Of a stretch of DNA of 32,000 nucleotides, positions 1,343 to 32,000 are shown in pieces. Numbering within the stretch: position 1 is the first letter of the stretch; each line of letters begins with the position of its first letter. Origin of the DNA: an uncultured bacterium (GTDB taxonomy: Bacteria; Patescibacteriota; Gracilibacteria; UBA1369; PNNO01); contig OY969931.1 in NCBI GenBank assembly GCA_963704705.1, positions 480,001 to 512,000 on the forward strand. The letters are read 5' to 3'. Made by a program: the position numbers and the translations under genes. Under the pieces are notes generated by a model. The model was not told the DNA's origin, made no database searches, and worked only from the letters and a program-made list of their open reading frames with translations.

Positions 1343-1351
1343 TTTGAAAAA

Positions 1352-11333: not shown

Positions 11334-11404
11334 TTAAATTTTAGATTTATTTAATAAATTTTTAATAATTAATTGGTGAAATCCAGCTGCTAGCCTCTCT
11401 TCGT

Positions 11405-11473: not shown

Positions 11474-11549
11474 GATGCTAGCATGTATAATTTAGTTGAT
11501 AAGACTCGTAGACCATCTGCAAAAGCTCTCAAATATTTGGGAGCTTTTC

Positions 11550-13187: not shown

Positions 13188-13212
13188 TATGAAGTTTGTT
13201 ATTCATGACAAG

Positions 13213-13241
13213 ACTTTATTAATGAAAGATTTTAGTGTCAA
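13213..13241 (-). promoter_or_regulatory. Sigma70-like promoter for paralog B
   Basis: On the minus strand: TTGACA (13241-13236), 17-nt spacer, TAAAGT (13218-13213), 25 nt upstream of the ATG at 13187. Confidence 0.35.
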
Positions 13242-13293
13242 ATTTGAATGTTTCACAAAGAATTTTATCTAAATAAAGCCAAATAAACAAATA

Positions 13294-14055: not shown

Positions 14056-14112
14056 TTAAAAATTAGACAGCAGGTGTATATCTAACCAGATTTTGCAAAT
14101 ATTGTCAACAAT

Positions 14113-15759
14113 TTAAGCAACCTCATTTAAATAGCACTGTTCGCAGTATACCTTTTCAGGCCTATCTGGTGAATATGTAGTTTTAACTTCAACTCCGCAC
14201 TTATCACATTTTCTGTCCCAAAGCCTAACCGGGTTGCGCAAATCGAGCCGCACTCTATGCCTGCATTCGCTGCATGTTGAAGGAGCCGGAATTCCCTGGC
14301 GCACATAAAAATTAAATTCAGGTCTGTTAATTTTGTAATTTCTGCCACAATCTTCGCATGCCAAAACTTTATCAATAATGCCTTCTTTCAAATCTTTAAC
14401 ATTGTCAGGCACAACCAAGTCTGATTTTTTATATTCTTTTGGATCTTTTTCTCTCCATCTGTAACCGTAAGTTAAGGCCTGCTCTTTTGTTAAAGGAAAA
14501 TATTGATGTGCTGTGCCCTCGTTATATGCAAAACAAGTTAATTCAGGCGGAAAGAACTTACCCCATTCTCCTGTTTTTTTCATGTGTTCAATGATTCGGC
14601 TGCGTAAAGCACGATATTCGTCTTGTTTATATTGCTTGTTTAAAATACAAAACTGTTTGTGTTTTAGTCCGTTGCATCCGAACACATCATTGCAACTTAT
14701 AATTTGTTCGCTATATTCTATATCATTACTGTCAAAAGCAAAGTATGTGAATTTTGATTTAACACATGTAAAAGTTGCAACCATGTTATAACAAACCTCA
14801 CTTTTATGGCCAAGATACGTTGAATTAAATAAATCGGTTGAATCAACTGAAAATAAAGTCTTTACAACATCCTCGCAATCATAAATGTCATAAGAATTTT
14901 TTACATTATTCGAATTATAAATATAATCTCCGGTCACATTTTCGTTGTTTACCCCATGATAATATTTCACCACACGCTTTTTTCTTAGCTCAACAAACAT
15001 TTTAAAAATCTCATTTATTCTTGCGCGGCTTCCATTTAGCATCTCCTTCTTTTGCGCAAAGTAGTCCTCTTTTGTAAGCTGTTTATTGCCGATGCAAAAT
15101 TCCTTTTTCGTAAGTCCCGTACATAAAATACATTCATTGCATCCGATACAATCACTTATAAAATAGCAGTTGGAACAGTTTTTGGAATCAAATGCATACT
15201 GGCATCCATAACTGTCATGTGAATATCCCATAAAATAACAAAGTTCGTTTTTATTGCTTATATCAATATCGAGTGAATCTTTATTGTGCATACATAAAGT
15301 ACTGTACTGAACATCTTCATTCATATCGCCTCCAAAAACCAAATAACAATTTTTATTTCCAACCGTCATATTACAATATTCGCTATTCTCTTGTTTTAGG
15401 TTTATTAAGGCCAGACGCGGAACCTCAAGCTGCAATTCTTTAAACTGTTCAAAAAATGGCCTGTTGAAGTCAAAATCGCGGCCGAATTCCATTGCATCCC
15501 ATTTGTCCGAATACCATGCTTTTGCGGAATAAACTTTATAAGGTGAATCCGGAGCGTAAATTGAAACAATGGGATCTCCGCTCGAATCACATTTGCGGTT
15601 ATATAAAACGCGTTCATTTCTAAATGCAAGACGCCCCATATGTGAACATTTAAAGCAAAGCTTTTCAGACGGAACCTGAAATTTTTCATATAATTTCAGT
15701 TCGTCTTCTTCGATAACTATATCCGCGCCGCATTGTAAGCATTTTGAATTCATACCCAA
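14113..15759 (-). CDS. Cysteine-rich double zinc-ribbon protein, paralog C (548 aa)
   Basis: Same architecture as A and B: CLQCG..LYEKFQVPSEKLCFKCS at the N-terminus, CEDCGR..CSECR..CDKCG..VYCEQCY at the C-terminus, and MKKTGEWGKFFP. Confidence 0.85.
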   Translation of the reverse strand: MGMNSKCLQCGADIVIEEDELKLYEKFQVPSEKLCFKCSHMGRLAFRNERVLYNRKCDSSGDPIVSIYAPDSPYKVYSAKAWYSDKWDAMEFGRDFDFNRPFFEQFKELQLEVPRLALINLKQENSEYCNMTVGNKNCYLVFGGDMNEDVQYSTLCMHNKDSLDIDISNKNELCYFMGYSHDSYGCQYAFDSKNCSNCYFISDCIGCNECILCTGLTKKEFCIGNKQLTKEDYFAQKKEMLNGSRARINEIFKMFVELRKKRVVKYYHGVNNENVTGDYIYNSNNVKNSYDIYDCEDVVKTLFSVDSTDLFNSTYLGHKSEVCYNMVATFTCVKSKFTYFAFDSNDIEYSEQIISCNDVFGCNGLKHKQFCILNKQYKQDEYRALRSRIIEHMKKTGEWGKFFPPELTCFAYNEGTAHQYFPLTKEQALTYGYRWREKDPKEYKKSDLVVPDNVKDLKEGIIDKVLACEDCGRNYKINRPEFNFYVRQGIPAPSTCSECRHRVRLDLRNPVRLWDRKCDKCGVEVKTTYSPDRPEKVYCEQCYLNEVA

Positions 15760-15867
15760 ATCTTATAATACTAAAAGTATTTTGCAAATTGCAAGTCACG
15801 GCAAATAAAAAATGGCTTTAAATAGTCAAAAAGCCAAATTAAATATTAACAAGCCCGCGTTAATATA

Positions 15868-16638
15868 TTAACTGTTCCAGTAGTGATTGAATTGATCCCG
15901 TTGAATTTTAAGTAATTCCGGCTGTCTTGTTATAACAACTTTTGGATCATCTTCATCGCAAATAAATAAGGTTGAACTGTCTTCGGTTATAACCATGAAA
16001 TTATCAGCAATAGGCTGTTTTGTGGTAAGTTTCATTGTTCTTTTCTCGAACGAATCACGTGATTTTAAAATATCGCCTAATTCATTGTACGGATTCATCA
16101 TTCTTACATAAATTCCACGTCGAAGTCTTTGTTGAATAAAATTACGTTCTTCGGGGCAATCAACACTCAAACCGCTTAAATTAAGAAAATTAATTACATT
16201 CCCCATTGGAAGCATTTCTTCTTTGCTCAGATTTGTTAGATTTAGATAAGCCTGTTTCATTGCATCAACACCGCATTTCACTTCAATCGGATCTTCCCGT
16301 TCTTTATCCGGATTTATAAATGATAAAAACGGATCCAGGTTTTTTAAGCCATTTTCAAGTTTTCTTAATTCTTTTTTATCATTTTGGATTTTTTTGACCA
16401 ATGATTTTAATGAAAGGGGTTTGAAAACAGATTCCTTGTTATTAATTGGAGCCGACTCAATGAGTCCTTTTTCTTTAAGATTTTTAAGAATTCTGTAAAT
16501 ATTTACAAAATGATATCCGCTAATTTCAGCTAACTTGTTAGCTGATGCCTGGCTTAATTTAAGCAGAATAAGATAGATTTTTATTTCTTCTTCTTTAAGT
16601 TCGGCCTTTTTTAATAGAGAAGTGAGTTTTTTTATCAT
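15868..16638 (-). CDS. TrmB-like winged-helix transcriptional regulator (256 aa)
   Basis: N-terminal LKEEEIKIYLILLKLSQASANKLAEISGYHFVNIYRILKNLKEKGLIE wHTH. The C-terminal end ...LLKIQRDQFNHYW parallels ...IADIQRSQFNIFS of the 13294-14055 product. Confidence 0.65.
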   Translation of the reverse strand: MIKKLTSLLKKAELKEEEIKIYLILLKLSQASANKLAEISGYHFVNIYRILKNLKEKGLIESAPINNKESVFKPLSLKSLVKKIQNDKKELRKLENGLKNLDPFLSFINPDKEREDPIEVKCGVDAMKQAYLNLTNLSKEEMLPMGNVINFLNLSGLSVDCPEERNFIQQRLRRGIYVRMMNPYNELGDILKSRDSFEKRTMKLTTKQPIADNFMVITEDSSTLFICDEDDPKVVITRQPELLKIQRDQFNHYWNS

Positions 16639-16701: not shown

Positions 16702-16800
16702 TTAATCTTATGTTAAGATATTAACCGCTTGAATAAGATATTAAATGGTTGACAAGATATTATAAAAATGTTATAAATAAAGCATGAAATTAAGATATTT
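16702..16800 (+). repeat. Phased TAAGATATTAA direct repeats (candidate operator array)
   Basis: Identical 11-mers TAAGATATTAA at 16714-16724 and 16734-16744, exactly 20 bp apart. cAAGATATTAt at 16753-16763 abuts the -35 box. TAAGATATTt at 16791-16800 lies inside the first codons. An inverted partial copy TTAATCTTA is at 16702-16710. Confidence 0.6.
16749..16777 (+). promoter_or_regulatory. Sigma70-like promoter of the ATPase gene, probably giving a leaderless mRNA
   Basis: TTGACA (16749-16754), 17-nt spacer, TATAAA (16772-16777). The ATG at 16784 is only 6 nt downstream of the -10 box. Confidence 0.5.
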
Positions 16801-19015
16801 ACATATCATTGTGCCGCAGGGTGAAGAAGCTAATCCAAAAAAAGAACAGCTTTTTCAGCAATTTTTGAATAACCTCTACAGATCAACACAAAACAGACCT
16901 ATAGGTCTTGAAATATTTGGATATAAACAATATGCATATTTTTATATGGTTGTTCCAAATGATTTATATGCGCTTGTTGAAGGACTTGTTTACAGTTCTT
17001 ATCCGGGCTGCGAAATTAAAGAGAGTAAAGATTATTGCTCCTTTGCAATTAATAAAGGTTTAAAATTTGTAGGAACCAAGATTAAACTTAAACGAAGTGA
17101 TATTTATCCTATTTTAAATTTTGATGATTTTGAAGGGGATAGTTTATCTGGACTTTTTTCCGTTATTTCTAAAATTCAGCAGGATGAGCAGATTTGGATT
17201 CAGATACTTACCTCTCCTAAACCTGACAATTGGACATATCACATGGCTCGCAGATTCAGGATGTTTACGAACAAAATTAATCGTGTTTTTAGATTAAAAA
17301 ATTATATGCGCTTAAAAGGAAGAAAAGAATTTTTTACTGAAGAAAAAAACGCATTTATCCATAAAACCGAATCACATCCTTTTAAATTTGAAATTAGAAT
17401 TGCATGTTTTGCAGAAGACCGTAATAAAGCAGCTGGGAGGCTTGAAGCTGTTGCAAAGGCTTTCTATCAATTTAATAAAATTGATTTTAATGAGTTTACA
17501 ACAACTAGAAATACCAGTAGCAAGATTTTTTTAGAAAATTATATTAAGAGAAATTTAACCGATTCCCAGCTTATTAGTGCCAAGGAACTATCTACGCTAT
17601 ATCATTTCCCAAATGCTGATCATGTGCCGCATGTTGTACATGTTCTTTCAAAAAAAGCTGAAGCACCGCAGGATGTTCCTAAAAAAAGAGGCAAGGATGT
17701 AAGCTTTTTTGGTGTAACCAATTATCATAATAATTTTGATGAATTTGGTATAAGCCGTGAAGATCGCCGAAGACATTTGTATGTGGTAGGGAAGAGTGGT
17801 ACAGGAAAAAGTAAACTTCTTGAGTTATTTATTAGTGAAGATATTAAAAATGGTGAAGGTGTAGCGGTTTTGGATCCGCATGGTGATCTTGTTGATAATG
17901 TTGTAAGAATGATCCCAGAGCATCGAAAGAATGATGTTATTTATTTTGATCCGGGTGATACTGAATTCCCGGTTGCGTTTAACCCCCTTGTTAAAGTTGA
18001 TGAGACTCAAAAAATGCAAATGACTGTTGGTTTTATAAATATTTTTAAAAAATTATTCGGAAGCAACTGGAGCGACAGGCTTGAACATGTTTTACGTTAC
18101 ACAACTTTGGCGCTTTTGGATTCTCCAAATACAACAGTGCTTTCGATTCTAAAAATGCTTTCGGATAAAAATTATCGTCAAACAATCACAGCACGAATTA
18201 AAGACTCGGTTGTTAAAAATTTTTGGGTTAATGAATTTGCGGGTTGGAGCGAAAAATTTGATGCTGAAGCAATTACACCTTTATTAAATAAAGTAGGGCA
18301 GTTTGTTGCAACAAATATGATTCGAAATATTATTGGTCAGCCGGATAACAAGTTTGATATCAGAAAAGTAATGGATGAGAAAAAAATTCTGCTTATGAAA
18401 GTGTCTAAAGGGCTTTTAGGTGAGGAAAATTCAAATTTACTCGGGGCAATGATTGTAACCAAGATTTATCAGGCAGCAATGAGTAGAGCTGATACCCCTG
18501 AAGAACAACGTGAAGATTTCTATTTGTATGTTGATGAGTTCCAGAATTTTGCAACAGACACTTTTGAAGAAATTCTTTCCGAAGCACGAAAATACAAATT
18601 AAATTTAACCATTGCACACCAATTTGTTGGTCAACTTTCACCTACAATGATCAAAACCGTATTTGGTAATGTTGGCTCAATGCTCAGCTTTAGGGTAGGT
18701 GCAGAAGACGCACAGGTTCTTGAAAATGAATACACTCCTGTATTCAAAGTTCGGGATATTATTAATCTCGCGGTTCGTGATTTTTATATAAAGATGTCAG
18801 TTAACGGTGAAGTCCGCAAGCCATTCAGCGGTCGAACTCTAGATGTAGTTAAACCGCCCGAAGATTTCACCGAAGAAATTATTGCGAATTCACGCTCTAA
18901 TTACGCAACGCCTGTTAGCCGAGTTGAATCAATGCTTGAAAAATGGGATGAATCAGGCGAATTCGACCTTAAACCAGGGGAGGCAAATGAAGAGTTTGAG
19001 GAACCTTTAATTTAA
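16784..19015 (+). CDS. VirD4/TraD-like (type IV coupling protein-like) P-loop ATPase with an uncharacterised ~330-aa N-terminal region
   Basis: Walker A VVGKSGTGKSKLL, then VLDPHGDL, Walker B FYLYVDEFQNF, and KYKLNLTIAHQFVGQL. These are typical of TraD/TrwB/VirD4-type coupling ATPases. The N-terminal third has no recognised motif. Confidence 0.7.
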   Translation: MKLRYLHIIVPQGEEANPKKEQLFQQFLNNLYRSTQNRPIGLEIFGYKQYAYFYMVVPNDLYALVEGLVYSSYPGCEIKESKDYCSFAINKGLKFVGTKIKLKRSDIYPILNFDDFEGDSLSGLFSVISKIQQDEQIWIQILTSPKPDNWTYHMARRFRMFTNKINRVFRLKNYMRLKGRKEFFTEEKNAFIHKTESHPFKFEIRIACFAEDRNKAAGRLEAVAKAFYQFNKIDFNEFTTTRNTSSKIFLENYIKRNLTDSQLISAKELSTLYHFPNADHVPHVVHVLSKKAEAPQDVPKKRGKDVSFFGVTNYHNNFDEFGISREDRRRHLYVVGKSGTGKSKLLELFISEDIKNGEGVAVLDPHGDLVDNVVRMIPEHRKNDVIYFDPGDTEFPVAFNPLVKVDETQKMQMTVGFINIFKKLFGSNWSDRLEHVLRYTTLALLDSPNTTVLSILKMLSDKNYRQTITARIKDSVVKNFWVNEFAGWSEKFDAEAITPLLNKVGQFVATNMIRNIIGQPDNKFDIRKVMDEKKILLMKVSKGLLGEENSNLLGAMIVTKIYQAAMSRADTPEEQREDFYLYVDEFQNFATDTFEEILSEARKYKLNLTIAHQFVGQLSPTMIKTVFGNVGSMLSFRVGAEDAQVLENEYTPVFKVRDIINLAVRDFYIKMSVNGEVRKPFSGRTLDVVKPPEDFTEEIIANSRSNYATPVSRVESMLEKWDESGEFDLKPGEANEEFEEPLI

Positions 19016-19169: not shown

Positions 19170-19553
19170 ATGAAAAAAATCATATATCTTGTCGGCAACC
19201 TATTAGTTGAAGAAGACTCCCTTCCAATCAAGCTCAAACCCGAACTCGAAAAGCAATTTCCACAGTTCATCTTTCGTGAATATGACCCAACCGAAGATCT
19301 GCCGCAGGATACCGAAGATCTTATTATTATCGATACGGTTGAAGGTCTGAAAGAACCGCACATTTTCACCGACATCGATGCATTTGCATCGCAAAAAGCT
19401 TATTCAATGCATGATTTTGATCTTGGATGGAGCCTTAAGCTATACAAAAAACTAAGAATGTTTAAGACCCTCAAAATAATAGGGATGCCATCAAACAGAG
19501 AGATTAATGAAATTTTCAATAAACTTAAAGATTTGCTAAAAACAAATATTTAA
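19170..19553 (+). CDS. [NiFe]-hydrogenase maturation endopeptidase (HycI/HybD-like)
   Basis: N-terminal VGNLLVEEDSLP (family GNxLxxDDGxG with an acidic ligand), IIIDTV (Asp ligand) and SMHDF (His ligand). Small size (127 aa). Lies beside the hydrogenase genes. Confidence 0.65.
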   Translation: MKKIIYLVGNLLVEEDSLPIKLKPELEKQFPQFIFREYDPTEDLPQDTEDLIIIDTVEGLKEPHIFTDIDAFASQKAYSMHDFDLGWSLKLYKKLRMFKTLKIIGMPSNREINEIFNKLKDLLKTNI

Positions 19554-20371
19554 AGCTCTAATAAATTTTTTAAATAATTATAACCTCTCTTTACAATACT
19601 TTTTTCTTTTCTAAATAATGCCTTACTCGATTCCTGAATTTTTTTCACGGTTCCTTTCATTACACCTCGTGCTTTCTCTGATATTTCGTTAATTTGTTTG
19701 ACTTGAAAGTCAAACAAATCACTTTCAAGTTCTATTCCTTTTTTAATATTTTCTTTCATATGATTTAAAGTTATTTTTGCAGCTTTACCTGCCTGCTCTG
19801 CAGTGATTATGCCTGCTTTCACCAGTGCCTTATTAAGTTTTGTTATTATCGGAGGCGTGATGTTTTTAAGAAGTTCATTTTCAGTTACATTTTCTTTGAA
19901 ATCTTTAGTTAAATAAAACAATAATGGACTTGTTGTCCTATATGTATTGCTAGCGAGTTGTTTTGCTCTAACTGATCTTGGCGCATGGAATAATGGACCA
20001 CATATATCTTTTACTAAAGCCATATAAACCAGAGGACTTCCTTCTTTTAATATTGTACAACTATATGCTGCAATACGTCTTTGTTCTTTTGGTTTTGCTT
20101 TTAAAGGATCCTTGCTTTTAATTTTTTTCTGTAACGAAGGGTACATACTGCTATCTTTAGTCCCTAATTTAACAGCAACATCATAGGGGGTAAATTCATT
20201 AGCAATAATAGCTTTTTTATCAGCAGCATCTGTTGCTTTTTTTGCAAGTTGTGTGAGAATGGATTCATCAATGCAATTTTTGATTTTCTGCAATCTTTTT
20301 GCTTTGTCTTTAATTGCAAGAATTGCATTTGGGCCTTCTTGGCTTTGTGTGGGTTGTATTTCTGTATTCAT
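19550..20371 (-). CDS. Hypothetical Lys-rich protein (273 aa)
   Basis: ORF only, no recognised motif. Shares a TTAA bidirectional stop with the protease gene. Confidence 0.5.
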   Translation of the reverse strand: MNTEIQPTQSQEGPNAILAIKDKAKRLQKIKNCIDESILTQLAKKATDAADKKAIIANEFTPYDVAVKLGTKDSSMYPSLQKKIKSKDPLKAKPKEQRRIAAYSCTILKEGSPLVYMALVKDICGPLFHAPRSVRAKQLASNTYRTTSPLLFYLTKDFKENVTENELLKNITPPIITKLNKALVKAGIITAEQAGKAAKITLNHMKENIKKGIELESDLFDFQVKQINEISEKARGVMKGTVKKIQESSKALFRKEKSIVKRGYNYLKNLLEL

Positions 20372-20463
20372 TTTTATTTTATTAATTTTAATTAATTATA
20401 TATAAATTATACAATAAAAATCAAATTTGCACAAGTGTGGTATATTTAAATATATAAATAATT

Positions 20464-20937
20464 TTAAATTTTACCCTCAAGGATAGAAGTATAATCTTTA
20501 AAACCGTGGCGCTTGTAGAAGCGTAGAGCGTGCTTGTTATTTGTGAAAAGTTCAACCTTCATTCGTTTAGCGCCGCGCTCTTTTAGCCATTTTTTGAATT
20601 CTTTGATTAGTTTTGTACCGATTTTAAGATTTCGATATCCATCAATAACAAACATATCGCCGAGCTGGCCAAGTTTATCAAGGGTTCTAAAGGCAGGGCT
20701 TTTAAAAAACCCGCCGCTTAAATATCCAACTGGTTCGCCGTCAACTTCCGCAATAATTGCAAAATTACTGCGTTCACTTACACGCATTTTAAAATAATCA
20801 GCGCATTTTTTACTTTTTGCCCATGTGATTTTATTTGTTGGATCAAAATTTTCATATTCCTCTTTCATCAAAAGATACATAAACTTTTGCATCAACTTAA
20901 TATCCTCTTGTTTTGCTTTACGAATTTTTACTTCCAT
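20464..20937 (-). CDS. GNAT-family N-acetyltransferase
   Basis: 157 aa. The block MFVIDGYRNLKIGTKLI...ALRFYKRHGF fits the GNAT acetyl-CoA-binding motif region. Overlaps the hydrogenase large subunit 3' end by 20 nt. Confidence 0.75.
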   Translation of the reverse strand: MEVKIRKAKQEDIKLMQKFMYLLMKEEYENFDPTNKITWAKSKKCADYFKMRVSERSNFAIIAEVDGEPVGYLSGGFFKSPAFRTLDKLGQLGDMFVIDGYRNLKIGTKLIKEFKKWLKERGAKRMKVELFTNNKHALRFYKRHGFKDYTSILEGKI

Positions 20938-22240
20938 TAAAGTGCCAGTTTAGTTTCAAAAAGTGAGTTGCGCAGCTCATACATGGGTCGTATGCGCGAA
21001 TTAGTTTTTCAATTTCGAATCTAACATGATCTTTATCTAAATTCTCACCGTCTTTATCCAAATATGATTGAACGAGATGTCTGATATCATTTGAAATATT
21101 GATTTGATTTTGCGCTGTTGGCACAACAACTTCAGCACCCTGGACAATTCCTGCATCATCCAATTTAACATAATGATATAAAGTACCGCGCGGAGCTTCA
21201 ACTACACCAACTCCTTCACCTGCTTTAAGCGGAAGTTTTTCTTTTGCAGGCTGATCAAGTTTAAGATTTTCAAGAATTTCAATAGAATGGTCTATTGAAT
21301 GTAAAATTTCAATGGCCTGAGCCAGATTATTATGATAAACATCATTTGAAGGAAAGCGTGCTAAATATTTTGCTGCGTCTTTTTTTGTTTTTTCATGAAG
21401 AGCATCGCGATTAACATTCATTCTTGCTAATGCGCCAACCATATATTCATTGCCCTGCAAAGTGTAACCGAGGGCAGTTGAATATGGGATTACAACTTCT
21501 TTTAACTGGTTTCTGAAATGTTCTTCGGGCACACAAAAACCGCCTTCGCTGCATAAAGCAGGTCCTTCCAAAAAACTGAAATCATCAGTTTTTAAGCCAA
21601 CAAATCGCGTTTCGCGTTTTAAACTGAATTCACAATTATCAAATATTTCCATTGCCAAGAATATTTTATCGCGAACTCCTTTTAATTCTTCAATAACTTT
21701 GGCAATTTCTTCTGTTGTTGGCAGTTTTACAAAACCGCCCGGCATTGGAAATGGTGCATGAACAGCACGTCCTCCAATCATTGTAGATAAATTGTTACCG
21801 GCTCTTTTTAAATCAAACATATCATGTAAAAGCTGGCTTTCTTTTTCATCATGTTCATCAAAATCCAATATAGAATCTTTACCTATTACATCAGGTAAAG
21901 CGAAAACATATAAATGAAGTGCATGATCACGAATCATTAAACCGTATGTAAGAAGCTTTCTAAGAGTTGTAGTTTGTTCTGATGGTTTGAACCCCAGAGC
22001 ATCTTCAACAGCTTCAATAGCAGCTAGCAAATGTGCGATACTGCATGTTCCGCAAATTCGCGAAAGTAGCTGTGGCACTTGCAAAAAAGGTTTACCTAAA
22101 ATTGCTTTTTCAAAAAATCTCTTATTTTCCATTATCATAAATTTCACGTCCTGAATTTTGCCGTCTTCAATTACAACATCCATATCAAGATGACCTTCGA
22201 TTTTTGATAAACCGTCGATGTTTATATTAATTTGATGCAT
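20918..22240 (-). CDS. [NiFe]-hydrogenase large (catalytic) subunit, group 3/4-like size (440 aa)
   Basis: N-terminal KIEGH and RICGTCSIAH (RxCGxCxxxH). C-terminal DPCMSCATH (DPCxxCxxH) followed by a 14-aa tail FLKLNWHFNGSKNS, consistent with endopeptidase processing. Confidence 0.85.
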   Translation of the reverse strand: MHQININIDGLSKIEGHLDMDVVIEDGKIQDVKFMIMENKRFFEKAILGKPFLQVPQLLSRICGTCSIAHLLAAIEAVEDALGFKPSEQTTTLRKLLTYGLMIRDHALHLYVFALPDVIGKDSILDFDEHDEKESQLLHDMFDLKRAGNNLSTMIGGRAVHAPFPMPGGFVKLPTTEEIAKVIEELKGVRDKIFLAMEIFDNCEFSLKRETRFVGLKTDDFSFLEGPALCSEGGFCVPEEHFRNQLKEVVIPYSTALGYTLQGNEYMVGALARMNVNRDALHEKTKKDAAKYLARFPSNDVYHNNLAQAIEILHSIDHSIEILENLKLDQPAKEKLPLKAGEGVGVVEAPRGTLYHYVKLDDAGIVQGAEVVVPTAQNQINISNDIRHLVQSYLDKDGENLDKDHVRFEIEKLIRAYDPCMSCATHFLKLNWHFNGSKNS

Positions 22241-22754
22241 TTTTGTGGTTAACTATTGAGTCGTCTTCAGGAATCACTCCGAATTCATGAAGATATTTAT
22301 CCATGGCTTTTACAAATTCGGTTTCAATCATCGGGCATCCCGGTACTTTATCATCAACCTGTACAATTTCGTGCAATGCCAATACTTTTTTGCTTTGATG
22401 AAATTGTAAAAGATAAGGAGCGATTTCTTCTTTCATTTCTTCACTGAAATTGTTTCGGTGGCCTGTTGGAAGCCCTGTAACAGCACATGATCCTATTGCA
22501 ACAATATATTTAGAATTCTCGCGGATTTTTTTAAGTTTTTCAGTATCGCGGTCTGAACAAATTGCGCCTTCAACAAATGCAACGTCAATATCGCTAAGCT
22601 CATTTTTGCTTTTTAAAACATTGCAATGTCTGAATTCCAGAATTTTCTTCCATGCCAACAGATGATCATTGAGCATCTCAGTGAACATAATTGTTGAATC
22701 TTCACAGCAAGTGAATGAAAACCAGCCGATTTTGAGTTTTTTTTGTTCAGACAT
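22227..22754 (-). CDS. [NiFe]-hydrogenase small subunit, minimal NuoB-like (proximal cluster only)
   Basis: Cys ligands FTCCEDS, AIGSCAVTG and VPGCP. About 175 aa from the ATG at 22754, which I prefer over the track's GTG at 22796 that overlaps hydG. No medial or distal cluster region. Confidence 0.75.
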   Translation of the reverse strand: MSEQKKLKIGWFSFTCCEDSTIMFTEMLNDHLLAWKKILEFRHCNVLKSKNELSDIDVAFVEGAICSDRDTEKLKKIRENSKYIVAIGSCAVTGLPTGHRNNFSEEMKEEIAPYLLQFHQSKKVLALHEIVQVDDKVPGCPMIETEFVKAMDKYLHEFGVIPEDDSIVNHKNASN

Positions 22755-22779
22755 CAAATCATATTTTACATAAAAATAT

Positions 22780-24141
22780 TTAAAAGTACAGATCACGCTG
22801 GCCCTCTTCTATAAATTTAAGACGTTCGATTGTTTTTTTGCGAACACTTTCAGAAGGTATTTGATCTACATATTTTTCAATGATTTTTAATCCTTTTGTC
22901 TTGGTGCGATCTTCCGCATAATCTTCCAAATATTCTTTTAAAGTTAAAATCGCATTTGGCCTGCAAAAATTATGTATTTCACCTGGCTTAGCAATATCCA
23001 TAAAATCCTGACCGGTTCTTCCCAATCTATAACAAGCAGTACAAAAACTTGGGAGCAAGCCTTTATCCATAATATCTTCAATGACTTCATCGACTGTGCG
23101 CTCATCTGAAGTTGTAAACTGATTGAGTTCAGGGTTTTTTCCATATCCCCCTGGAGAAGTACGCGAAGCAGCTGAACTTTGAGAAATGCCTATTTCAAAA
23201 GCTTTCTGCCTTATTTCGGGCCTTTCTCTTGTTGAAATAATCATGCCGGTATATGGAACCGCCATTCTTAAAATAGCTATAATTTTCAGAAGTTCTTCTT
23301 CACTTACAGCATGCGGCCATTTGTCTTTAACTGTTGGCGCAGGCTGAAGCCGCGGAACAGAAAAAGTATGAGGTCCAACGCCATAAGTTTTATCCAAATA
23401 AAAAGCATGAGAAAGCAAAGCGAGTGTGTCATATTTCCAGTCATACAAGCCATAAAGAACACCTAAGCCAATATCATCAATTCCGCCTTTAAATGCTTCG
23501 TCGTGAGCATTGAGTTGTCTTTCGTAATCACCCTTAAGGCCTTTGTGAAGTTTTTTGTAAGTCGGTCTGTGATAAGTTTCCTGAAATAATTGATAAGTTC
23601 CGATTCCAATTTCTTTTAATTTTGCGTAATTTTCAGCTGTTGTTGCAGCAATATTTACATTTACCCTTCGTATTTCGCCTTTGCCCTCCTTAACTGAATA
23701 AATTGTTTTGATTGTATCAACAACATAATCAATAGGGTTATTGATGGGATCTTCACCAAATTCAAGGAGCAAACGTTTATGTCCCATTCTAATTAGCAAT
23801 CTTGTTTGTTCTTCAACTTCTTCGAGTGTAAGTTTTTTTCTTTTACACTTATTCCTTGCATGAAATCCGCAATATTCACAGTCATTTACACAAAAATTTG
23901 AAATATAAAGTGGGGCAAAAAGCACCAGTCGCTCGCCATAAATCTCTTTTTTGATATACCAAGCTGTTTCAAACATTCTCGCTTCGTGTTTTTTATCTGC
24001 ATTCATTAACATCGCGGCTTCTTTAAGCCCGATTCCCTTCATTTTTTTTGCTTTATTTAGAATGATTTCAACCTGTTCATCAGTTGGATTTTGCGTTTCT
24101 TCGAGTATTTTTTCTATGATTTCGTGATCGAATTGTTTCAT
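22780..24141 (-). CDS. hydG: [FeFe]-hydrogenase maturase HydG (radical SAM tyrosine lyase)
   Basis: Radical SAM motif ISNFCVNDCEYCGF. C-terminal auxiliary-cluster motif CTAC followed by exactly 22 residues to the next C (CxxCx22C). 453 aa. Confidence 0.85.
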   Translation of the reverse strand: MKQFDHEIIEKILEETQNPTDEQVEIILNKAKKMKGIGLKEAAMLMNADKKHEARMFETAWYIKKEIYGERLVLFAPLYISNFCVNDCEYCGFHARNKCKRKKLTLEEVEEQTRLLIRMGHKRLLLEFGEDPINNPIDYVVDTIKTIYSVKEGKGEIRRVNVNIAATTAENYAKLKEIGIGTYQLFQETYHRPTYKKLHKGLKGDYERQLNAHDEAFKGGIDDIGLGVLYGLYDWKYDTLALLSHAFYLDKTYGVGPHTFSVPRLQPAPTVKDKWPHAVSEEELLKIIAILRMAVPYTGMIISTRERPEIRQKAFEIGISQSSAASRTSPGGYGKNPELNQFTTSDERTVDEVIEDIMDKGLLPSFCTACYRLGRTGQDFMDIAKPGEIHNFCRPNAILTLKEYLEDYAEDRTKTKGLKIIEKYVDQIPSESVRKKTIERLKFIEEGQRDLYF

Positions 24142-25410
24142 TTATGAGATTTTTAATTTGTCCTCAAGCATCTTATAACTCTCAGCAGTATTGTAAAGCC
24201 CGTATTTTTCCCACATTTCACGGTCCAAAGGTTGTTTTCTTTGATAGATTTCATAATGCGGCCGGTATTTTTCAGGAGTAATATCAAACATCATCGCATT
24301 TGCACCTGCTTTTATTGCTTTTTTTCTGCCTTCTTCAGGGTCCAGAGTTTCGTGAGCTGTAACAACCGGGATTCTTGTGTCCTTCATTTCAAGCCTTAAA
24401 ATAGCGATCATTTTTAGCATTAAATCGGTTGATCCGGCTTTTTCATTTTCATAAGGTGTATTTGCGCTTGGAACAAAAGGCCCCATTGAAACCATATCAA
24501 AATCATGGTCACGGATTGTAATAATATCTTCAGCTAAATCTTCAAGAGTCTGCCCCGGCAGCCCCACTATTGAGCCTGATGCAATAAAATATTTAAGCTC
24601 TTTCATGAATTTCAAGTGCTCAAAGCGCGCCTTAATAGATTTGCCCGGCAAAATACGATTGCCGTGAATCTTCGCAAACAGCTGCGGATTTGAGGTTTCG
24701 AATCTGAATAAAACTCCGTCTGCGCGTGCTTCTTTTAAGGCTTTATATGTTTCAAAATCGCGTTCGCCAATGCTTATAAAAATAAATACTTTGTGCTTTT
24801 CTTTAATTTTCCTAAGTAATTCCACAAGTTTTTCTTTTGTGTAATAAGGATCATCACCTGACTGTAATACAAAAAGTTTGTATCCTATATCTGCGCCTTG
24901 CCCAACCGCATCAACTATTTCTTCATCTGTCATTCTGTAGCGTTTGACTGCCTTGTTTTGGCATCGAAGTCCGCAATAATTACAGTTATTCACACAATAA
25001 TTTGAGAATTCAATGATACCGTGAATACAAAAAAAATCTTTTATTAAAGTTTTGCGCATCATGTCCGCTTCGCTAAAAAGCGCTTCAAGTTCAGGACCTT
25101 CGAGTTTTAATAAATATTTAATTTCATCTTTTAGAAGTTTGCGCTGTTTTGATGCTTTGACCACATCAACAAATCTTTCGCTTAAGTTTTTTGGATCGGT
25201 TTTTTGAACATGCTCCAACAATTCAAGAATTTCCTCGGCATCTTGAGGTGAAACTTTTTGAACGGCAATATCCGACATATATAAAATCCAATCTCCAACT
25301 TTAAGGTCATCAATGCTTCGAATATCTATTTCAAAATGCCTGCCATCTTTATTGATTTTGGCTTTCTTGTTATGAATTTCCTCTACTTTTGCGGGAATAG
25401 TTAGGCACAT
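24142..25410 (-). CDS. hydE: HypC-like domain fused to [FeFe]-hydrogenase maturase HydE (radical SAM)
   Basis: N-terminus MCLTIPAKVEEI...VGDWILY matches the HypC/HupF start (MC[LI]x[IV]P). The remainder matches HydE: IIEFSNYCVNNCNYCGLR...KRYRMT, VLQSGDDPYY, GSIVGLPGQTLEDL, HDFDMVSMGPFVP. Its stop abuts the hydG start with 0-nt spacing. Confidence 0.8.
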   Translation of the reverse strand: MCLTIPAKVEEIHNKKAKINKDGRHFEIDIRSIDDLKVGDWILYMSDIAVQKVSPQDAEEILELLEHVQKTDPKNLSERFVDVVKASKQRKLLKDEIKYLLKLEGPELEALFSEADMMRKTLIKDFFCIHGIIEFSNYCVNNCNYCGLRCQNKAVKRYRMTDEEIVDAVGQGADIGYKLFVLQSGDDPYYTKEKLVELLRKIKEKHKVFIFISIGERDFETYKALKEARADGVLFRFETSNPQLFAKIHGNRILPGKSIKARFEHLKFMKELKYFIASGSIVGLPGQTLEDLAEDIITIRDHDFDMVSMGPFVPSANTPYENEKAGSTDLMLKMIAILRLEMKDTRIPVVTAHETLDPEEGRKKAIKAGANAMMFDITPEKYRPHYEIYQRKQPLDREMWEKYGLYNTAESYKMLEDKLKIS

Positions 25411-25419
25411 AGTATTTGA

Positions 25420-25448
25420 ATTTTACAGATAAATTCTTTTTTTGACAA
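25420..25448 (-). promoter_or_regulatory. Candidate promoter of the hypC-hydE/hydG/hydrogenase operon
   Basis: On the minus strand: TTGTCA (25448-25443), 17-nt spacer, TAAAAT (25425-25420), 9 nt before the ATG at 25410. The -35 box overlaps face-to-face with the plus-strand TTGACA. Confidence 0.4.
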
Positions 25449-28984: not shown

Positions 28985-29039
28985 TTAGCCCTTTATATAC
29001 TAAGTAACCCCCCACATACTAAGTATATAGAAATGCCTC

Positions 29040-29068
29040 TTGACAAATTTTTGCAACATAGTTATAAT
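29040..29068 (+). promoter_or_regulatory. Sigma70-like promoter of the surface-protein gene
   Basis: TTGACA (29040-29045), 17-nt spacer, TATAAT (29063-29068), about 60 nt upstream of the ATG at 29129. Confidence 0.5.
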
Positions 29069-29128
29069 CGCGTCTAAAATTTGCGATTTGATTTTTGTAA
29101 CGAATATAAGCAGGTCGCATTATAAAGA

Positions 29129-32000
29129 ATGAATAAGCATTTAATCTTACTTAATATGTATACAACAAAAGCACTTTCGTTAAAACGCGTTGGAGCAATA
29201 GCTGCTCTAATGGTTCTTGGACTATCACTTTTGCTTACACAAGCTATTTCTGCAAATGCATCAGTAGCTGCAATAAGTAATTACAGTGTTGCTCCGCTTA
29301 CTTTTAATCCCGGTTTACAGCCCCTTATTATCAATTTTGATATTAATCAGGCAGGTAAAGTCGGGTTAGAAGTCAGTAAAGATACAGAAGTAATTAAATC
29401 TATTGCGCACATGAAAGATGTGGTTCCGGGAACTCAAACTTTTGAGTGGGATGGAACTGACAGATATGGTGCTCAGGTCGAAGAAGGTGCTTACTGGGTA
29501 AGACTTATTTATTATAATACTGACTTTACTTTATTTAAAAATACCAAAGTTATTGTTGATTATAATGCACCTTATGTTGATCCCAATGGTGGTAACAATG
29601 GCGGTAATAACGGAGGTACAACCGATGTGATTACTTCTGATTATGTAAATCCTAATCCTTTTAATCCAACTCAGGAAACAGCAAGAATTTATTTTACATT
29701 AAATGAATCAGTAGATTATTTGGATGTGAAAATTAAAGATGGAAGCAATACAATTGCTACTTTAATAAATCATCAAAGTAAAAATGCAGGTACATATTAT
29801 GTTGCATGGAACGGTAAAGACACCTTTGGAGATTATGTGGATGAAGGTCCCTATTCTTATGAAATAAAAGCGAATGGTTCTTTTGGAACAGAAACCGAAC
29901 TTGGGAATGTTGATGTTGATTACGAAGGAAATCCTCCAAATAACGGAGGTAATAACGGTGGTGATACTATTGTTGAACCAAACATTACAAACGCCTATGC
30001 AATGCCTGAAGTCATTGATCCTTCTGAAGGAGACACAATGAGAATTTATTACACTCTTGATACATGCGCTTACGTAAAAGTAAATGTAACTGACCCTTCA
30101 AACAGCAATGCGCATGTAGCTGAGCTTCAGGACTGGACATATCAGTGTGATGGTGAACATTATGTTGTTTGGGAAGGCAAAAACGACAACAACCAAATTA
30201 TGCATAATGGTGATTATAAAATTACAATTGATGCAAATAACAGCAAAGGATCAGATGAAGAAGTGGAATTTGTTGAAGTTACAGATAATAACGGAGGCGG
30301 AAACAACAATGGAAATCTTCCTGATGTTTATGACTTAAGTTTAAACAGAGATGTGTTTGATCCTTATGATCAGACAGTTACATTAACTTATAAACTGGAC
30401 GAATGTTCGGATGTAACAATCAAGATTTACGATGAAAATGATAATTATGTTGATACTTTAACTAATGCTGAAAATAAGTGTTCAGGTACTTTTACAGAAA
30501 CCTGGAATGGTGAAGATTCATCAAATAATGAAGTTGATGATGGAAATTATTACTTCAAAGTCTATGCTTTAAATGATTACGGAAGCGATTCTGAAAAAAA
30601 ATATGTTGAAGCTGATTCAAGCAGCAATAATTCAGGCAATGACAAACCGCAAATTACAAATGTAGATGTAAATCCAGATGTATTTAATCCTTATGATGAA
30701 GATACTGAATTGAAATTTAAATTAAATACTTGTGCAGATGTAAGCATTGATGTTCGTGATCAGGATAATGATGTTGTTTATGAGGTTATTCATAATAAAA
30801 ATTTATGTAGCGGTACACATTCTTACAAATGGGACGGTGAAGATGATAATAATCATTATGTAAGAGAAGATAATTATGAATTTTACATCAGAGCTGAAAA
30901 TGATGAAGGAACTGATACAGCACGAGCTGATGTTGATGTTGATTACAACGGCTACACTTACAATTCAGGAGAAAGATGTTCAAATTACCTTGATGTAAGC
31001 ACAAGCAGTGAATATTGCGATGCTATTGAATATGTAACTGGAAGAGGAATTTTCGACGGATATCCTGACGGAACATTTAAACCTTATCAGGCAATTAACC
31101 GCGCTGAAACTTCAAAAGTTATTATTAAAGGATTTGATTATCCTATACTTTCACCTGACGGAACAAACCTTGGATTCTGGGATTTATTACCTGAAGCTTG
31201 GTATATTCCTTATATAAAAACAGGTAAGGCTTACGGAATTTTACAGGGATATCCTGATGGTTCATTCCAGCCTGCAAGAACAGTAAACCGCGTGGAATTA
31301 CTTAAGATTTTCCTTGAGTCAGCAAATGTAGCATTGCCTACTTGCAATACAGCTCCTTATGTTGACACTCCAAAACAAGCGGATACAGAATGGTATATTC
31401 CATATGTTTGCTATGCGAAAATGAACAATTTAATGGATACAGACTATTATGGTCACTTTAATCCTGATAAACCAATGACTCGCGGCGATGTAGCTGAGTT
31501 ATTCTACAGATTTTCAAACCGCGATTATAATACCAATTACACTTATAACGACCCATATTATTACGACGATTACTACTACACCAACACAACTACCGGAACA
31601 GTAGCAAAATTAAGCAATGTTGAACTTTCTGATGATAAGGTTGAACGAGGCGATGCATTCACTATTTATTATAATTTGAATGTACGATCTGATGTAACTA
31701 TTGAAATCCTTGATGAAGATGGTGATGTTGTAAGAGAAATTATTGATGACTTCAGCCAGTCAGCAGGAAGATTATCAGCTCGCTTTAACGGAGAAAATGA
31801 CGATGGTGACGATTTAAGATTGGGTGATTACACTGTAAGAATAGTTGCACGTAACTATTATGGATCAGACAAAGAAGAAATTGATTTTGAAGTTGCTGAA
31901 AACGGAGGAAGCAGTAGCGACGACTACAGAGATACCAATAAATTAGTTGATGTTTACGATCTTAATCTGGATCCAGACGAGTTCGATCCTGATACTGAAG
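29129..32000 (+). CDS. Large secreted cell-surface protein with FlgD-Ig-like repeats and internal SLH modules, 3' end outside the window
   Basis: Not in the ORF track because no stop occurs before the window end; I translated it by hand. Signal-peptide-like N-terminus (ALSLKRVGAIAALMVLGLSLLLTQAISANA). At least 7 units of ~95-105 aa carry WxGxD..G..V.(D/E)G.Y motifs, joined by NNGGNNGG linkers. Three SLH-like modules (GIFDGYPDGTFKPYQAINRAE, GILQGYPDGSFQPARTVNRVE, GHFNPDKPMTRGD). An alternative start is the ATG at 29156. Confidence 0.8.
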   Translation, partial: MNKHLILLNMYTTKALSLKRVGAIAALMVLGLSLLLTQAISANASVAAISNYSVAPLTFNPGLQPLIINFDINQAGKVGLEVSKDTEVIKSIAHMKDVVPGTQTFEWDGTDRYGAQVEEGAYWVRLIYYNTDFTLFKNTKVIVDYNAPYVDPNGGNNGGNNGGTTDVITSDYVNPNPFNPTQETARIYFTLNESVDYLDVKIKDGSNTIATLINHQSKNAGTYYVAWNGKDTFGDYVDEGPYSYEIKANGSFGTETELGNVDVDYEGNPPNNGGNNGGDTIVEPNITNAYAMPEVIDPSEGDTMRIYYTLDTCAYVKVNVTDPSNSNAHVAELQDWTYQCDGEHYVVWEGKNDNNQIMHNGDYKITIDANNSKGSDEEVEFVEVTDNNGGGNNNGNLPDVYDLSLNRDVFDPYDQTVTLTYKLDECSDVTIKIYDENDNYVDTLTNAENKCSGTFTETWNGEDSSNNEVDDGNYYFKVYALNDYGSDSEKKYVEADSSSNNSGNDKPQITNVDVNPDVFNPYDEDTELKFKLNTCADVSIDVRDQDNDVVYEVIHNKNLCSGTHSYKWDGEDDNNHYVREDNYEFYIRAENDEGTDTARADVDVDYNGYTYNSGERCSNYLDVSTSSEYCDAIEYVTGRGIFDGYPDGTFKPYQAINRAETSKVIIKGFDYPILSPDGTNLGFWDLLPEAWYIPYIKTGKAYGILQGYPDGSFQPARTVNRVELLKIFLESANVALPTCNTAPYVDTPKQADTEWYIPYVCYAKMNNLMDTDYYGHFNPDKPMTRGDVAELFYRFSNRDYNTNYTYNDPYYYDDYYYTNTTTGTVAKLSNVELSDDKVERGDAFTIYYNLNVRSDVTIEILDEDGDVVREIIDDFSQSAGRLSARFNGENDDGDDLRLGDYTVRIVARNYYGSDKEEIDFEVAENGGSSSDDYRDTNKLVDVYDLNLDPDEFDPDTE

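Follow-up and report, generated by a model that had tools for sequence, protein, structure and literature searches.

Five tightly packed genes are located on the minus strand of the window (i.e., the whole 32-kb stretch of DNA analysed) between positions 25410 and 20464. They encode a HypC–HydE fusion, HydG, the small and the large subunit of a [NiFe] hydrogenase and a GNAT acetyltransferase. The host is a CPR bacterium with a tiny genome. The HydE and HydG genes abut, a gap of 25 nt follows before the small-subunit gene, and the next two junctions are overlaps of 14 and 20 nt. All genes reported by the first-pass annotation were found where it had placed them, and its central observation, that HydE/HydG maturases are encoded in a [NiFe] operon, is confirmed. 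A promoter-like site (TTGTCA-17-TAAAAT; 25420..25448, minus strand) precedes the fusion gene, within a divergent intergenic region of 83 nt; it is suggestive at most, since the count of such sites in this region is not above that of shuffled sequence.

The first gene (24142..25410, minus strand) encodes a protein of 422 aa. In detail, its HypC domain comprises aa 1-72 (nt 25410-25195), begins with Met-Cys (MCLTIPAKV) and is followed by a linker. It is recognised by PF01455 over aa 1-65 (59.5 bits, cut-off 28.5) and by TIGR00074 (51.9 bits), and residues 1-70 match the T. kodakarensis HypC (PDB, E = 3e-7). The HydE part (TIGR03956, 272 bits, cut-off 254.6) has its radical-SAM barrel at aa ~84-392, with the CX3CX2C motif in the form CVNNCNYC; residues 84-392 cover nearly the whole barrel of the T. 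maritima HydE structures (PDB match, E = 1e-72). Cys2 is invariant across 19 diverse fusions, and a counterpart of the E. coli HypC His51 is absent from the HypC domain of this protein. Fusions of this kind make up a large conserved family and are no peculiarity of the window, a point missed at first reading: both domains are present in all 120 best database homologues (120/120), and one metagenome scan provided 454 relatives. In the HydE tree the fused clade was recovered in 30 of 50 bootstraps.

HydG (453 aa; 22780..24141, minus strand) is a tyrosine-lyase-type radical-SAM enzyme, with 574 bits for TIGR03955 (cut-off 312) and 57% identity to the Thermoanaerobacter HydG P0241, which is itself 97% identical to the crystallised 4WCX protein. 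The CX3CX2C (C84/C88/C91) and CX2CX22C (C367/C370/C393) motifs are intact, and the dangler-iron histidine, a HydG-specific residue absent from E. coli ThiH, is conserved (H258, equivalent to Ti His265). With the NCBI equivalog cut-offs passed by both radical-SAM proteins and these HydG ligands kept, their initial identification as genuine HydE and HydG holds.

Fusion-linked HydGs, including that of the window, form a single clade (bootstrap 99/100), and 41 out of 41 of them retain the cysteines of the radical-SAM and auxiliary clusters as well as the histidine of the dangler iron. Nested within this clade is L016, a canonical HydB-HydA-HydG-HydE-HydF cluster. The clade-specific residues Q112, R208, Q209 and F217 are also found in L016. 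Position 248 is not shared: fusion-linked sequences have Tyr there, L016 has Phe, and most ordinary HydGs have His. When the clade-specific residues were compared with L016, no HydG residue was found to track the [NiFe] link.

The small subunit (175 aa; 22227..22754, minus strand; PF01058, 70.7 bits) is truncated. The mechanically defined ORF begins at GTG 22796; when homologues are aligned, ATG 22754 is favoured, as had been chosen in the first place. The protein aligns solely to residues ~3-167 of the P. furiosus sulfhydrogenase delta subunit and spans no more than the first ~160 residues of 3b delta subunits, with the proximal-cluster domain alone present and the first motif being CCEDS versus CCEGC. 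The large subunit (440 aa; 20918..22240, minus strand; PF00374, 115 bits) is of the group-3b-related "hyd2" type. The motif check agrees with the earlier description of four Ni/Fe cysteines (RICGTCSIAH, DPCMSCATH) and a C-terminal tail, which extends 14 residues past the histidine; both cysteine motifs are kept in 29 of the 29 complete large subunits adjoining fusions. In NCBIfam the ShyA/HydA alpha subunits match best, with scores under their equivalog cut-offs, and the nearest solved structures are the group-3b alpha subunits of T. kodakarensis and P. furiosus (PDB 5YXY, 9NEZ). The closest named homologues belong to Peregrinibacteria/Patescibacteria, followed by Gracilibacteria and DPANN archaea.

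The hydrogenase itself is already known, although it was not recognised at first: Jaffe et al. 2020 (PMC7304191) described its clade as "hyd2". In that paper the hyd2 small subunit is truncated (mean 164 aa), the function is called uncertain, and "some members" of a neighbouring family are said to resemble hypC. The present locus shares with it the 3b-related large subunit, a small subunit of ~164-175 aa, a HypC-like neighbour and beta/gamma subunits that are not adjacent. It differs in that the paper is silent on radical SAM (zero occurrences of "radical"), and no description of a HydE/HydG link to the hyd2 hydrogenase was found in the searchable literature.

A gene of 127 aa on the plus strand (19170..19553) had been called a HycI-like endopeptidase. 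The gene is there; the HycI call relies on sub-threshold matches (Pfam HycI, E = 1.3e-3, 19 bits, cut-off 23; NCBIfam NiFeSe maturation protease, E = 2.8e-4, below cut-off), and hhalign, a PDB profile search and AlphaFold2 (pLDDT 50) did not confirm it. The family is a conserved neighbour of hyd2-type large subunits (Peregrinibacteria, Gracilibacteria, Micrarchaeota), and six of its residues are invariant: G9, N10, D16, D55, H81 and D82. In these data it is present only at hyd2-type large-subunit loci, where tails are 7-14 aa wherever the C-terminus was read. We tentatively regard the product as a putative minimal maturation endopeptidase for the large-subunit tail. Between this gene and the GNAT gene lies an unannotated ORF of 273 aa (19550-20371, minus strand), which had been omitted. 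The first 20 nt of the GNAT acetyltransferase gene (20464..20937, minus strand; PF00583, 67.8 bits) overlap the large-subunit gene. Only the closest relatives (L001 and L012) keep a GNAT gene at this place behind the large subunit.

The window had been described as devoid of HydA, HydF and HypDEF. This is borne out, as a six-frame search of the 32 kb at E ≤ 1, and Pfam too, gave none of HydA, HydF, HypA, HypB, HypD, HypE or HypF.

Gene neighbourhoods were compared between 88 non-redundant fusion loci (1.02 Mb in all) and a control set of 59 loci of unfused HydG, with counts covering ±10 kb around each match and, for the source genome, 32 kb of 1.37 Mb. HydG is immediately downstream of the fusion in 38 of the 66 loci with enough sequence. 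Fusion loci flanked by 8 kb or more (n = 42) contain the [NiFe] large subunit in 23 cases, 3b gamma in 16, 3b beta in 14, HypA in 13, and HypB and HydA in one each; HydF, HypD, HypE and HypF are found in none of these 42, even at E ≤ 10. In the control, HydF occurs at 19/59 loci and HydA at 15-16/59, Hyp proteins and 3b beta/gamma subunits at none of the 59, and large-subunit-like matches at just two, both weak (67-68 bits). Over the complete sets, large subunits were found at 32/88 fusion versus 2/59 control loci (Fisher p = 8e-7), HydF at 0/88 versus 19/59 (p = 4e-9) and HydA at 1/88 versus 16/59 (p = 1e-6). The association of the fusion with [NiFe] hydrogenases is far beyond chance and no local accident.

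The usual gene order is beta, gamma, HypC–HydE, HydG, delta, alpha, HypA, and therefore the maturases lie inside the structural operon. Conservation of synteny, named as a test by the first-pass annotation, was found: the gene order of the window recurs at five further Peregrinibacteria/Patescibacteria loci (L002, L012-L015) and at many more distant ones. The module goes with two divergent 3b large-subunit types, the four-subunit "hyd1"-like and the two-subunit "hyd2", in Peregrinibacteria, other Patescibacteria, one Woesearchaeota MAG and one contig with 54% GC. A stand-alone canonical HypC (Cys2 and His51 equivalent) accompanies the fusion in L018, L115 and L133. At 11 of the 42 well-flanked fusion loci there is neither HydG nor hydrogenase, and no HydE/HydG lies within 10 kb of the closely related hyd2 enzymes that Gracilibacteria and Micrarchaeota encode.

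The usual task of HydE and HydG is to build the iron-carbonyl-cyanide core of [FeFe] hydrogenases. The reading that we favour, with moderate confidence, is that a minimal [NiFe] hydrogenase, group-3b-related and made of two subunits, shares the operon with a dedicated module for maturation of its iron ligands, probably recruited from the [FeFe] system. In this module HydG and HydE–HypC would stand in for HypD, HypE and HypF. HydG, judging from its conserved site, would cleave tyrosine and build CO and CN⁻ on the dangler iron. By analogy with the known substrate of HydE, the barrel would then receive an Fe(CO)x(CN)y unit chelated by cysteine and release it via radical chemistry. The attached HypC domain may bind this unit through its invariant N-terminal cysteine and hand it to the apo large subunit, as the fusion and the known role of free HypC in the classical pathway suggest. 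Nickel insertion would be next, HypA being encoded in many related operons and not in the window, and finally the small candidate endopeptidase would cut off the 14-residue tail. A hybrid route, in which a [NiFe] large subunit would obtain its diatomic ligands, or an Fe(CO)x(CN) unit, from HydG and HydE, had been suggested at the outset; recurrent synteny, family membership and neighbourhoods with HypA/B/C but without HypD/E/F and HydF, all sequence evidence, argue for it. Lack of conserved synteny and a placement of the radical-SAM genes outside the HydE and HydG clades had been named beforehand as refuting outcomes, and on both points the result speaks for the route.

Some results count against this route. 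The characterised product of HydG is Fe(CO)2(CN)(Cys), whereas the [NiFe] site requires Fe(CN)2(CO); this stoichiometry does not match, and no sequence feature accounts for the change. The HydG residues shared with L016 do not track the [NiFe] link, the fused HydE clade has only 30/50 bootstraps, and the HydA near the fusion in L009, the 11/42 loci without the link and the hyd2 enzymes without a nearby module point in the same direction.

Current reviews hold HypA-F to be universally required and name the anaerobic origin of CO, an acknowledged gap of the classical pathway, as the most pressing open question, with tyrosine and radical SAM unmentioned (PMC12134894). This gap, and the fact that HydG is a proven CO generator, would suit an alternative that we consider unlikely, in which HypD/E/F elsewhere in the genomes make both cyanides from carbamoyl phosphate, and HydG with HydE–HypC gives only CO, or pre-carbonylated iron, anoxically. 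The HypDEF counts cover ±10 kb around each match, and the stand-alone HypC kept in three loci is the partner of HypD in classical systems. The genes hypC and hypD are, however, usually adjacent, and more than 20 HypC modules in the 1.02 Mb are without nearby HypD, HypE or HypF although HypA and HypB are present. HydG also yields CN⁻ equal in amount to CO, so HypE/F would be redundant, and such redundancy would be unusual in very small genomes.

It is less probable still that the radical-SAM pair matures an [FeFe] hydrogenase elsewhere, with the HypC-like domain replacing the HydF carrier and the [NiFe] co-location reflecting a shared hydrogen-metabolism regulon. Within the [NiFe] operon the maturase genes separate the gamma gene from the delta gene, HydA and HydF are depleted at fusion loci as counted above, and the fused domain is from the HypC family, whose sole known clients, to our knowledge, are [NiFe] large subunits. 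Such a client would fit the minimal HydA (283 aa) 10 kb from the fusion gene in L009, the nesting of L016 and HydE and HydG that are bona fide by curated thresholds; recognised maturases are also missing in many archaea with active [FeFe] hydrogenases (PMC11216029). A drift of the pair to another small molecule or cofactor, or a large-subunit metal site other than NiFe(CN)2CO, which would make the HydE/HydG names misleading, is very improbable: HydE clears its cut-off narrowly, the hyd2 small subunit is truncated and departs from the usual first cysteine motif, and the function of hyd2 is called uncertain (PMC7304191), but HydG scores nearly twice its cut-off with every cofactor ligand kept, the linked large subunits all have the four cysteines, and the nickel chaperone HypA is co-operonic in 13/42 loci.

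The system has in common with canonical HypA-F maturation (E. coli, T. kodakarensis) a HypC-family module with an essential N-terminal cysteine, a large subunit with four cysteines and a cleavable tail, a small candidate endopeptidase alongside, and HypA, rarely HypB, in related operons. It differs in that neither the window nor 1.02 Mb of related loci yielded HypD, HypE or HypF, HydG being there instead, and in that its HypC forms part of a radical-SAM fusion and has no His51 equivalent. With [FeFe] maturation by HydE/HydF/HydG it shares genuine HydE and HydG, whose catalytic and auxiliary sites are intact and whose genes lie side by side, as they do in many hyd operons. There is no HydF scaffold, a HydA client occurs in one locus only, HydE bears an N-terminal HypC domain, and the neighbours are [NiFe] subunits and HypA. 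Archaeal hybrid complexes (Greening et al. 2024, PMC11216029) likewise mix [FeFe] and [NiFe] components in uncultivated small-genome lineages, but they combine catalytic subunits and most of their genomes are without HydEFG, whereas here the maturation enzymes are mixed around a single [NiFe] catalytic subunit.

HypX of O2-tolerant [NiFe] hydrogenases provides a precedent for an add-on enzyme that gives a diatomic ligand from an unrelated metabolite (PMC12134894). HypX is aerobic, uses formyl-tetrahydrofolate and makes CO only, alongside HypCDEF; the candidate here would be a tyrosine-cleaving radical-SAM enzyme making both CO and CN⁻. Overall, the arrangement in ~90 related loci points to what may be an undescribed way of [NiFe] cofactor synthesis.

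The hydrogenase operon lies on the minus strand (25410-20464) and consists of five tightly packed genes. These encode, in order, a HypC–HydE fusion (422 aa), HydG (453 aa), the [NiFe] small subunit (22227-22754; 175 aa, PF01058), the [NiFe] large subunit (440 aa, PF00374) and a GNAT protein. The genes of the fusion and of HydG abut; a gap of 25 nt follows, and the last two junctions overlap by 14 and 20 nt. Just 5′ of the fusion gene there is a promoter-like site, of a kind no commoner here than in shuffled sequence. A six-frame search of the 32-kb window, whose seeds were the Hyp proteins of E. coli together with verified HydF and HydA, detected no HypA, HypB, HypD, HypE, HypF, HydF or HydA and a single HypC module, i.e., the fused copy. 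The first-pass annotation had placed [NiFe] genes in one operon with HydE and HydG, without HydA, HydF or HypDEF in the window, and this is borne out by the gene calls, the profiles and the six-frame search.

The window has a GC content of ~34% and carries housekeeping genes (NusB, RNase III, YceD, S20, Maf and tRNA-Met), and the closest named homologues of the hydrogenase genes belong to Candidatus Peregrinibacteria and the “Patescibacteria group,” which identifies the source of the window as a CPR bacterium. A block on the minus strand (9681-16638) contains three paralogues of ~545-550 aa with treble-clef zinc-finger motifs (9681-11333, 11550-13187 and 14113-15759), interleaved with two TrmB-like regulators (13294-14055 and 15868-16638). 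ORFs of ~545 aa resembling these paralogues adjoin the hydrogenase in a Peregrinibacteria locus (L002). In both genomes, a VirD4/TraG-like coupling ATPase (window 16784-19015, plus strand; L002 12696-14927, where it also carries DUF8128) directly adjoins the putative endopeptidase gene. An unannotated ORF of 273 aa is located between the latter gene (19170-19553) and GNAT. A very long ORF (28985-32000, plus strand; >950 codons) runs past the window end; its N-terminus has a hydrophobic segment resembling a signal, and it probably encodes a large secreted or surface protein.

The HypC–HydE fusion is a conserved family. In the window protein, PF01455 covers aa 1-65 (59.5 vs. 28.5 bits; TIGR00074, 51.9 vs. 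48), and residues 84-392 align to residues 17-319 of TmHydE from T. maritima (E = 1e-72), essentially the whole length of the barrel. The equivalog cut-off of TIGR03956 is passed narrowly (272 vs. 254.6 bits). This HydE is not a stand-alone radical-SAM protein, as the N-terminal HypC domain is found in all of its best 120 database homologues, each of which matches both PF01455 and PF04055 (down to 50% identity). The N-terminal motif is MCLTIPAKV in the window protein; its Met-Cys pair is invariant among 19 diverse fusions, which also share the radical-SAM motif of HydE. The domain and its Met-Cys are thus shared with the HypC/HupF/HybG chaperones, whereas two features of the latter have no counterpart. 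At the position of E. coli HypC His51, the fusions have Met, Ile, Thr or Gln, although the stand-alone HypCs of the same loci keep the histidine, and a HypD was not found in any locus. Judged from these residues, the fused domain fits a HypC that may no longer partner HypD. In the neighbor-joining tree of the HydE barrel, the fused HydE clade is not separated.

The HydG of the operon exceeds the TIGR03955 equivalog cut-off (574 vs. 312 bits), whereas it remains below that of ThiH (289 vs. 380). Its ligand residues are complete, that is, C84/C88/C91 (CX3CX2C), C367/C370/C393 (CX2CX22C) and H258. The dangler-iron ligand of HydG has been described as His265 (PMC8855341). Since the PDB chain 4WCX has 480 aa and the native Thermoanaerobacter protein 466 aa, the former carries a 14-residue tag, and His265 of the literature is therefore the histidine of GPHT, which corresponds to H258 of the window. 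Neither this histidine nor any of the six cysteines (three of the radical-SAM and three of the auxiliary cluster) varies among 41 fusion-linked and 55 ordinary HydGs; in E. coli ThiH the position of the histidine is occupied by Tyr. A putative replacement of the dangler-iron histidine in the fusion-linked clade (Tyr vs. His at 248) was rejected, as the true position is H258, invariant in both groups.

Fusion-linked HydGs form one clade with a bootstrap support of 99/100 (98 HydGs, neighbor-joining with E. coli ThiH as the outgroup; all trees of this analysis are distance-based). The sole exception inside this clade is L016, a locus without a fusion, which shows the textbook cluster HydB-HydA-HydG-HydE-HydF-TM1266. 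From the nesting of a canonical [FeFe] cluster among them, it follows that the [NiFe]-linked HydGs were taken over from the [FeFe] system. The clade is set apart by five positions (Q112, R208, Q209, F217 and Y248), and L016 shares four of them, with Phe at 248. Their reading as a [NiFe] specialization was therefore rejected, because residues largely common to a canonical [FeFe] cluster point to ancestry rather than to a demonstrable [NiFe] adaptation.

Concerning the structural subunits, the large subunit has its best matches, in NCBIfam as in the PDB, among group-3b alpha subunits, with those of T. kodakarensis and P. furiosus nearest to it. It has both RxCGxCxxxH and DPCxxCxxH, as RICGTCSIAH and DPCMSCATH, but it scores far under the 3b alpha equivalog cut-offs (263 vs. 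700). The small subunit spans only the proximal-cluster domain of 3b delta (175 aa vs. ~250 aa with three clusters). Since this subunit is truncated and neither beta nor gamma occurs in the 32 kb, the alpha-beta-gamma-delta composition of group 3b is not found here, and “3b-related (hyd2)” is a more suitable name than “3b.” The enzyme belongs exactly to the hyd2 clade of Jaffe et al. (2020), which is CPR-specific and of uncertain function, with a 3b-related large subunit, a truncated small subunit (mean 164 aa) and no adjacent beta or gamma (PMC7304191). In the same work, some members of a family neighboring hyd2 are hypC-like, and the word “radical” is absent from it. The small subunit of the window has CCEDS in the place of the CCEGC of 3b (alignment A4), i.e., a proximal-cluster Cys is changed to Ser and an extra Cys is adjacent. 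In a related copy (L156), CCEGC is kept and the cysteine of GSCA is gone (GSGAV). Such changes suggest that the only Fe-S cluster may have an unusual ligation.

Both Ni/Fe cysteine motifs are kept in all 29 complete large subunits adjoining fusions. Large subunits of the four-subunit type (L017, L018 and L084-L147) stop exactly at the histidine of DPCxxCxxH without any C-terminal extension; with nothing to cleave, they presumably mature without proteolysis. On the contrary, hyd2-type subunits have tails of 7-14 residues wherever the C-terminus was read, including the 14 of the window copy. The gene at 19170-19553 had been labeled HycI-like. The gene is present, whereas for the label only sub-threshold sequence matches were obtained (19 bits against PF01750, cut-off 23), with a probability of 0.6% against E. 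coli HycI in hhalign, no match in the PDB profile search and a pLDDT of 50 for the single-sequence AlphaFold2 model. The ~127-aa gene is nevertheless conserved, with invariant Gly-Asn, Asp16, Asp55 and His81-Asp82, and in these data it is confined to hyd2-type loci. Based on synteny, the conserved Asp/Asp/His and above all its co-occurrence with tailed hyd2 large subunits, it is tentatively a candidate tail endopeptidase. ORFs located 3′ of distant fusions in three loci (L007, L009 and L010) were rejected, as they are not homologues of it.

The arrangement recurs widely. A species-representative HydG scan showed the order fusion–HydG–small–large in four Peregrinibacteria/Patescibacteria loci (L012-L014 and the incomplete L015). 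In L017, another Patescibacteria locus, a different, full-length 3b hydrogenase is accompanied by HypA, and a PF05635 gene (23S-rRNA-intervening-sequence family, 6053-6421) separates hypA from the large-subunit gene. L018, a contig of 54% GC, contains HypC, the fusion, HydG and a convergent [NiFe] pair; its bin is Thermodesulfobacteriota, and a 689-aa ankyrin/Sel1-repeat protein (285-2354, minus strand) adjoins the hydrogenase genes. Either the module also has a host outside CPR, or this contig was binned wrongly. The fusion and HydG are also found in a Woesearchaeota locus (L074).

A metagenome scan with the fusion alignment gave 454 relatives; the best 80 were retained, and the fusion loci amounted to 88 after the removal of near-duplicates. 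The usual partners of HydG were searched within ±10 kb of each hit, and among these loci HydF was never found and HydA once (0/88 and 1/88). HydG is located directly 3′ of the fusion in 38 of the 66 loci with at least 1.5 kb downstream. Where the flanks reach at least 8 kb (42 loci), HydG is found in 25, the [NiFe] large and small subunits in 23, 3b gamma in 16, 3b beta in 14, HypA in 13, and HypB and HydA in one each. HydF, HypD, HypE and HypF are found in none of the 42, with nothing above noise at E ≤ 10 and the HMMER filters off. The commonest order is beta, gamma, HypC–HydE, HydG, delta, alpha, HypA, which places the maturases inside the structural operon. The 59 loci that surround unfused HydG genes in the HydG scan served as a control. 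HydF is present in 19 of them and HydA in 15-16, large-subunit-like matches are weak and limited to two, and neither Hyp proteins nor 3b beta/gamma occur. The contrast between the two sets is significant (Fisher p 1e-6 to 4e-9).

Neither HydG nor a hydrogenase is found in 11 of the 42 well-flanked fusion loci. A fusion sub-lineage (L121, L124, L129, L135, L137, L139, L140, L146, L149 and L150) has PAS-domain and pilus-like genes alongside, and HydG or a hydrogenase is missing within ±10 kb, also where the contig measures 400-800 kb. In most of its members, as well as in L136 and L144, a DJ-1/PfpI gene is 3′ of the fusion. Two clusters of conserved neighboring proteins (7 and 10), considered as possible extra maturation factors, were set aside; they have N-terminal hydrophobic segments and no family match, and look like pilus or pseudopilin proteins. 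In hyd2 loci of Gracilibacteria and Micrarchaeota, HypC-like genes exist, but HydE and HydG are absent within 10 kb, so the module is not universal in the hyd2 clade. The Gracilibacteria hyd2 genes (L003-L005, 9486-13177, and the contig of protein P0068) are placed inside a pyrimidine cluster (PyrK-like flavoprotein, PyrD, PyrC, PyrB and CarA), together with two HypC-domain genes, one with an N-terminal extension of ~100 aa. The 3b gamma subunit has a homologue in PyrK, so the PyrK-like flavoprotein might be the missing electron partner of these enzymes.

Conclusively, group-3b [NiFe] hydrogenases are coupled to [FeFe]-type maturases, a HypC–HydE fusion among them, apparently without HypDEF and HydF, and this coupling is real, conserved and widespread. 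The hydrogenase clade itself was already known; in the searchable literature the coupling is undescribed, since no link of HydG or HydE to [NiFe] maturation was found in the full texts. The hybrid route proposed in the first-pass annotation, in which HydG and HydE provide diatomic ligands to a [NiFe] large subunit, gains from the wide recurrence of the synteny and from a HydG that falls in its own family with intact ligands.

A functional link between the module and the [NiFe] enzyme is highly probable, whereas the chances that the module actually replaces HypDEF are about even. Starting from the observed gene content and order, the fusion, the conserved catalytic residues, the clade structure and the neighborhood statistics, a sequence of steps can be suggested. 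HydG would form CO and CN⁻ from tyrosine on the dangler iron, and the HydE barrel would process a cysteine-bound iron unit. The tethered HypC domain would take this unit onto Cys2 and deliver it into the apo large subunit. Nickel would be inserted next, via HypA where present, and tail cleavage would come last. The known product of HydG is Fe(CO)2(CN) and the [NiFe] site is Fe(CN)2(CO), a mismatch in ligand count which means either that the ligands are partitioned differently here or that the site is non-canonical. In its fullest form, this route would build the [NiFe] iron center of CPR and some DPANN wholly from tyrosine through HydG and HydE–HypC, with no HypD/E/F and perhaps with an Fe(CO)2(CN)-like site, which is conceivable though doubtful.

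HypDEF might instead be encoded elsewhere, with HydG supplying CO alone; the regions searched for HypDEF, HydA and HydF were ±10 kb around each hit and the 32 kb of the window, ~2% of its 1.37-Mb source genome, and we consider this reading unlikely. Service of the module to a distant [FeFe] hydrogenase would find an example in L009, a CPR-like contig of 269 kb, where a minimal [FeFe] hydrogenase of 283 aa (12109-12829, minus strand; PF02906, best NCBIfam match of the monomeric B1 type) is 10 kb from the fusion gene. This is the only HydA seen near any fusion; the neighborhood statistics speak against such a service, as does the presence of a HypC-type domain, and it is quite improbable. A drifted function or a non-standard metal site is very improbable.

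In textbooks and current reviews, every [NiFe] hydrogenase is held to need HypA-F, and HydE, HydF and HydG are held to be exclusive to [FeFe] enzymes. With HydG and a HypC-fused HydE in the apparent place of HypDEF, this operon is a candidate for another way of making the Fe(CO)(CN) unit, and it connects the two maturation systems in evolution. According to a 2025 minireview, no [NiFe] hydrogenase can do without the six Hyp proteins, and the anaerobic origin of CO is the most pressing open question; neither tyrosine nor radical SAM is mentioned there (PMC12134894). The proposed mechanism bears directly on that question and is testable. The module is compact (four to six genes), has its iron carrier built into the enzyme and is suited to heterologous expression and isotope labeling; it could also simplify the engineering of [NiFe] hydrogenases in hosts without the Hyp machinery. 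If the proposed route is true, [FeFe] and [NiFe] maturation are interchangeable modules and the anaerobic CO source is identified in at least one lineage, and it would become clear why a [NiFe] hydrogenase is affordable for ultra-small genomes.
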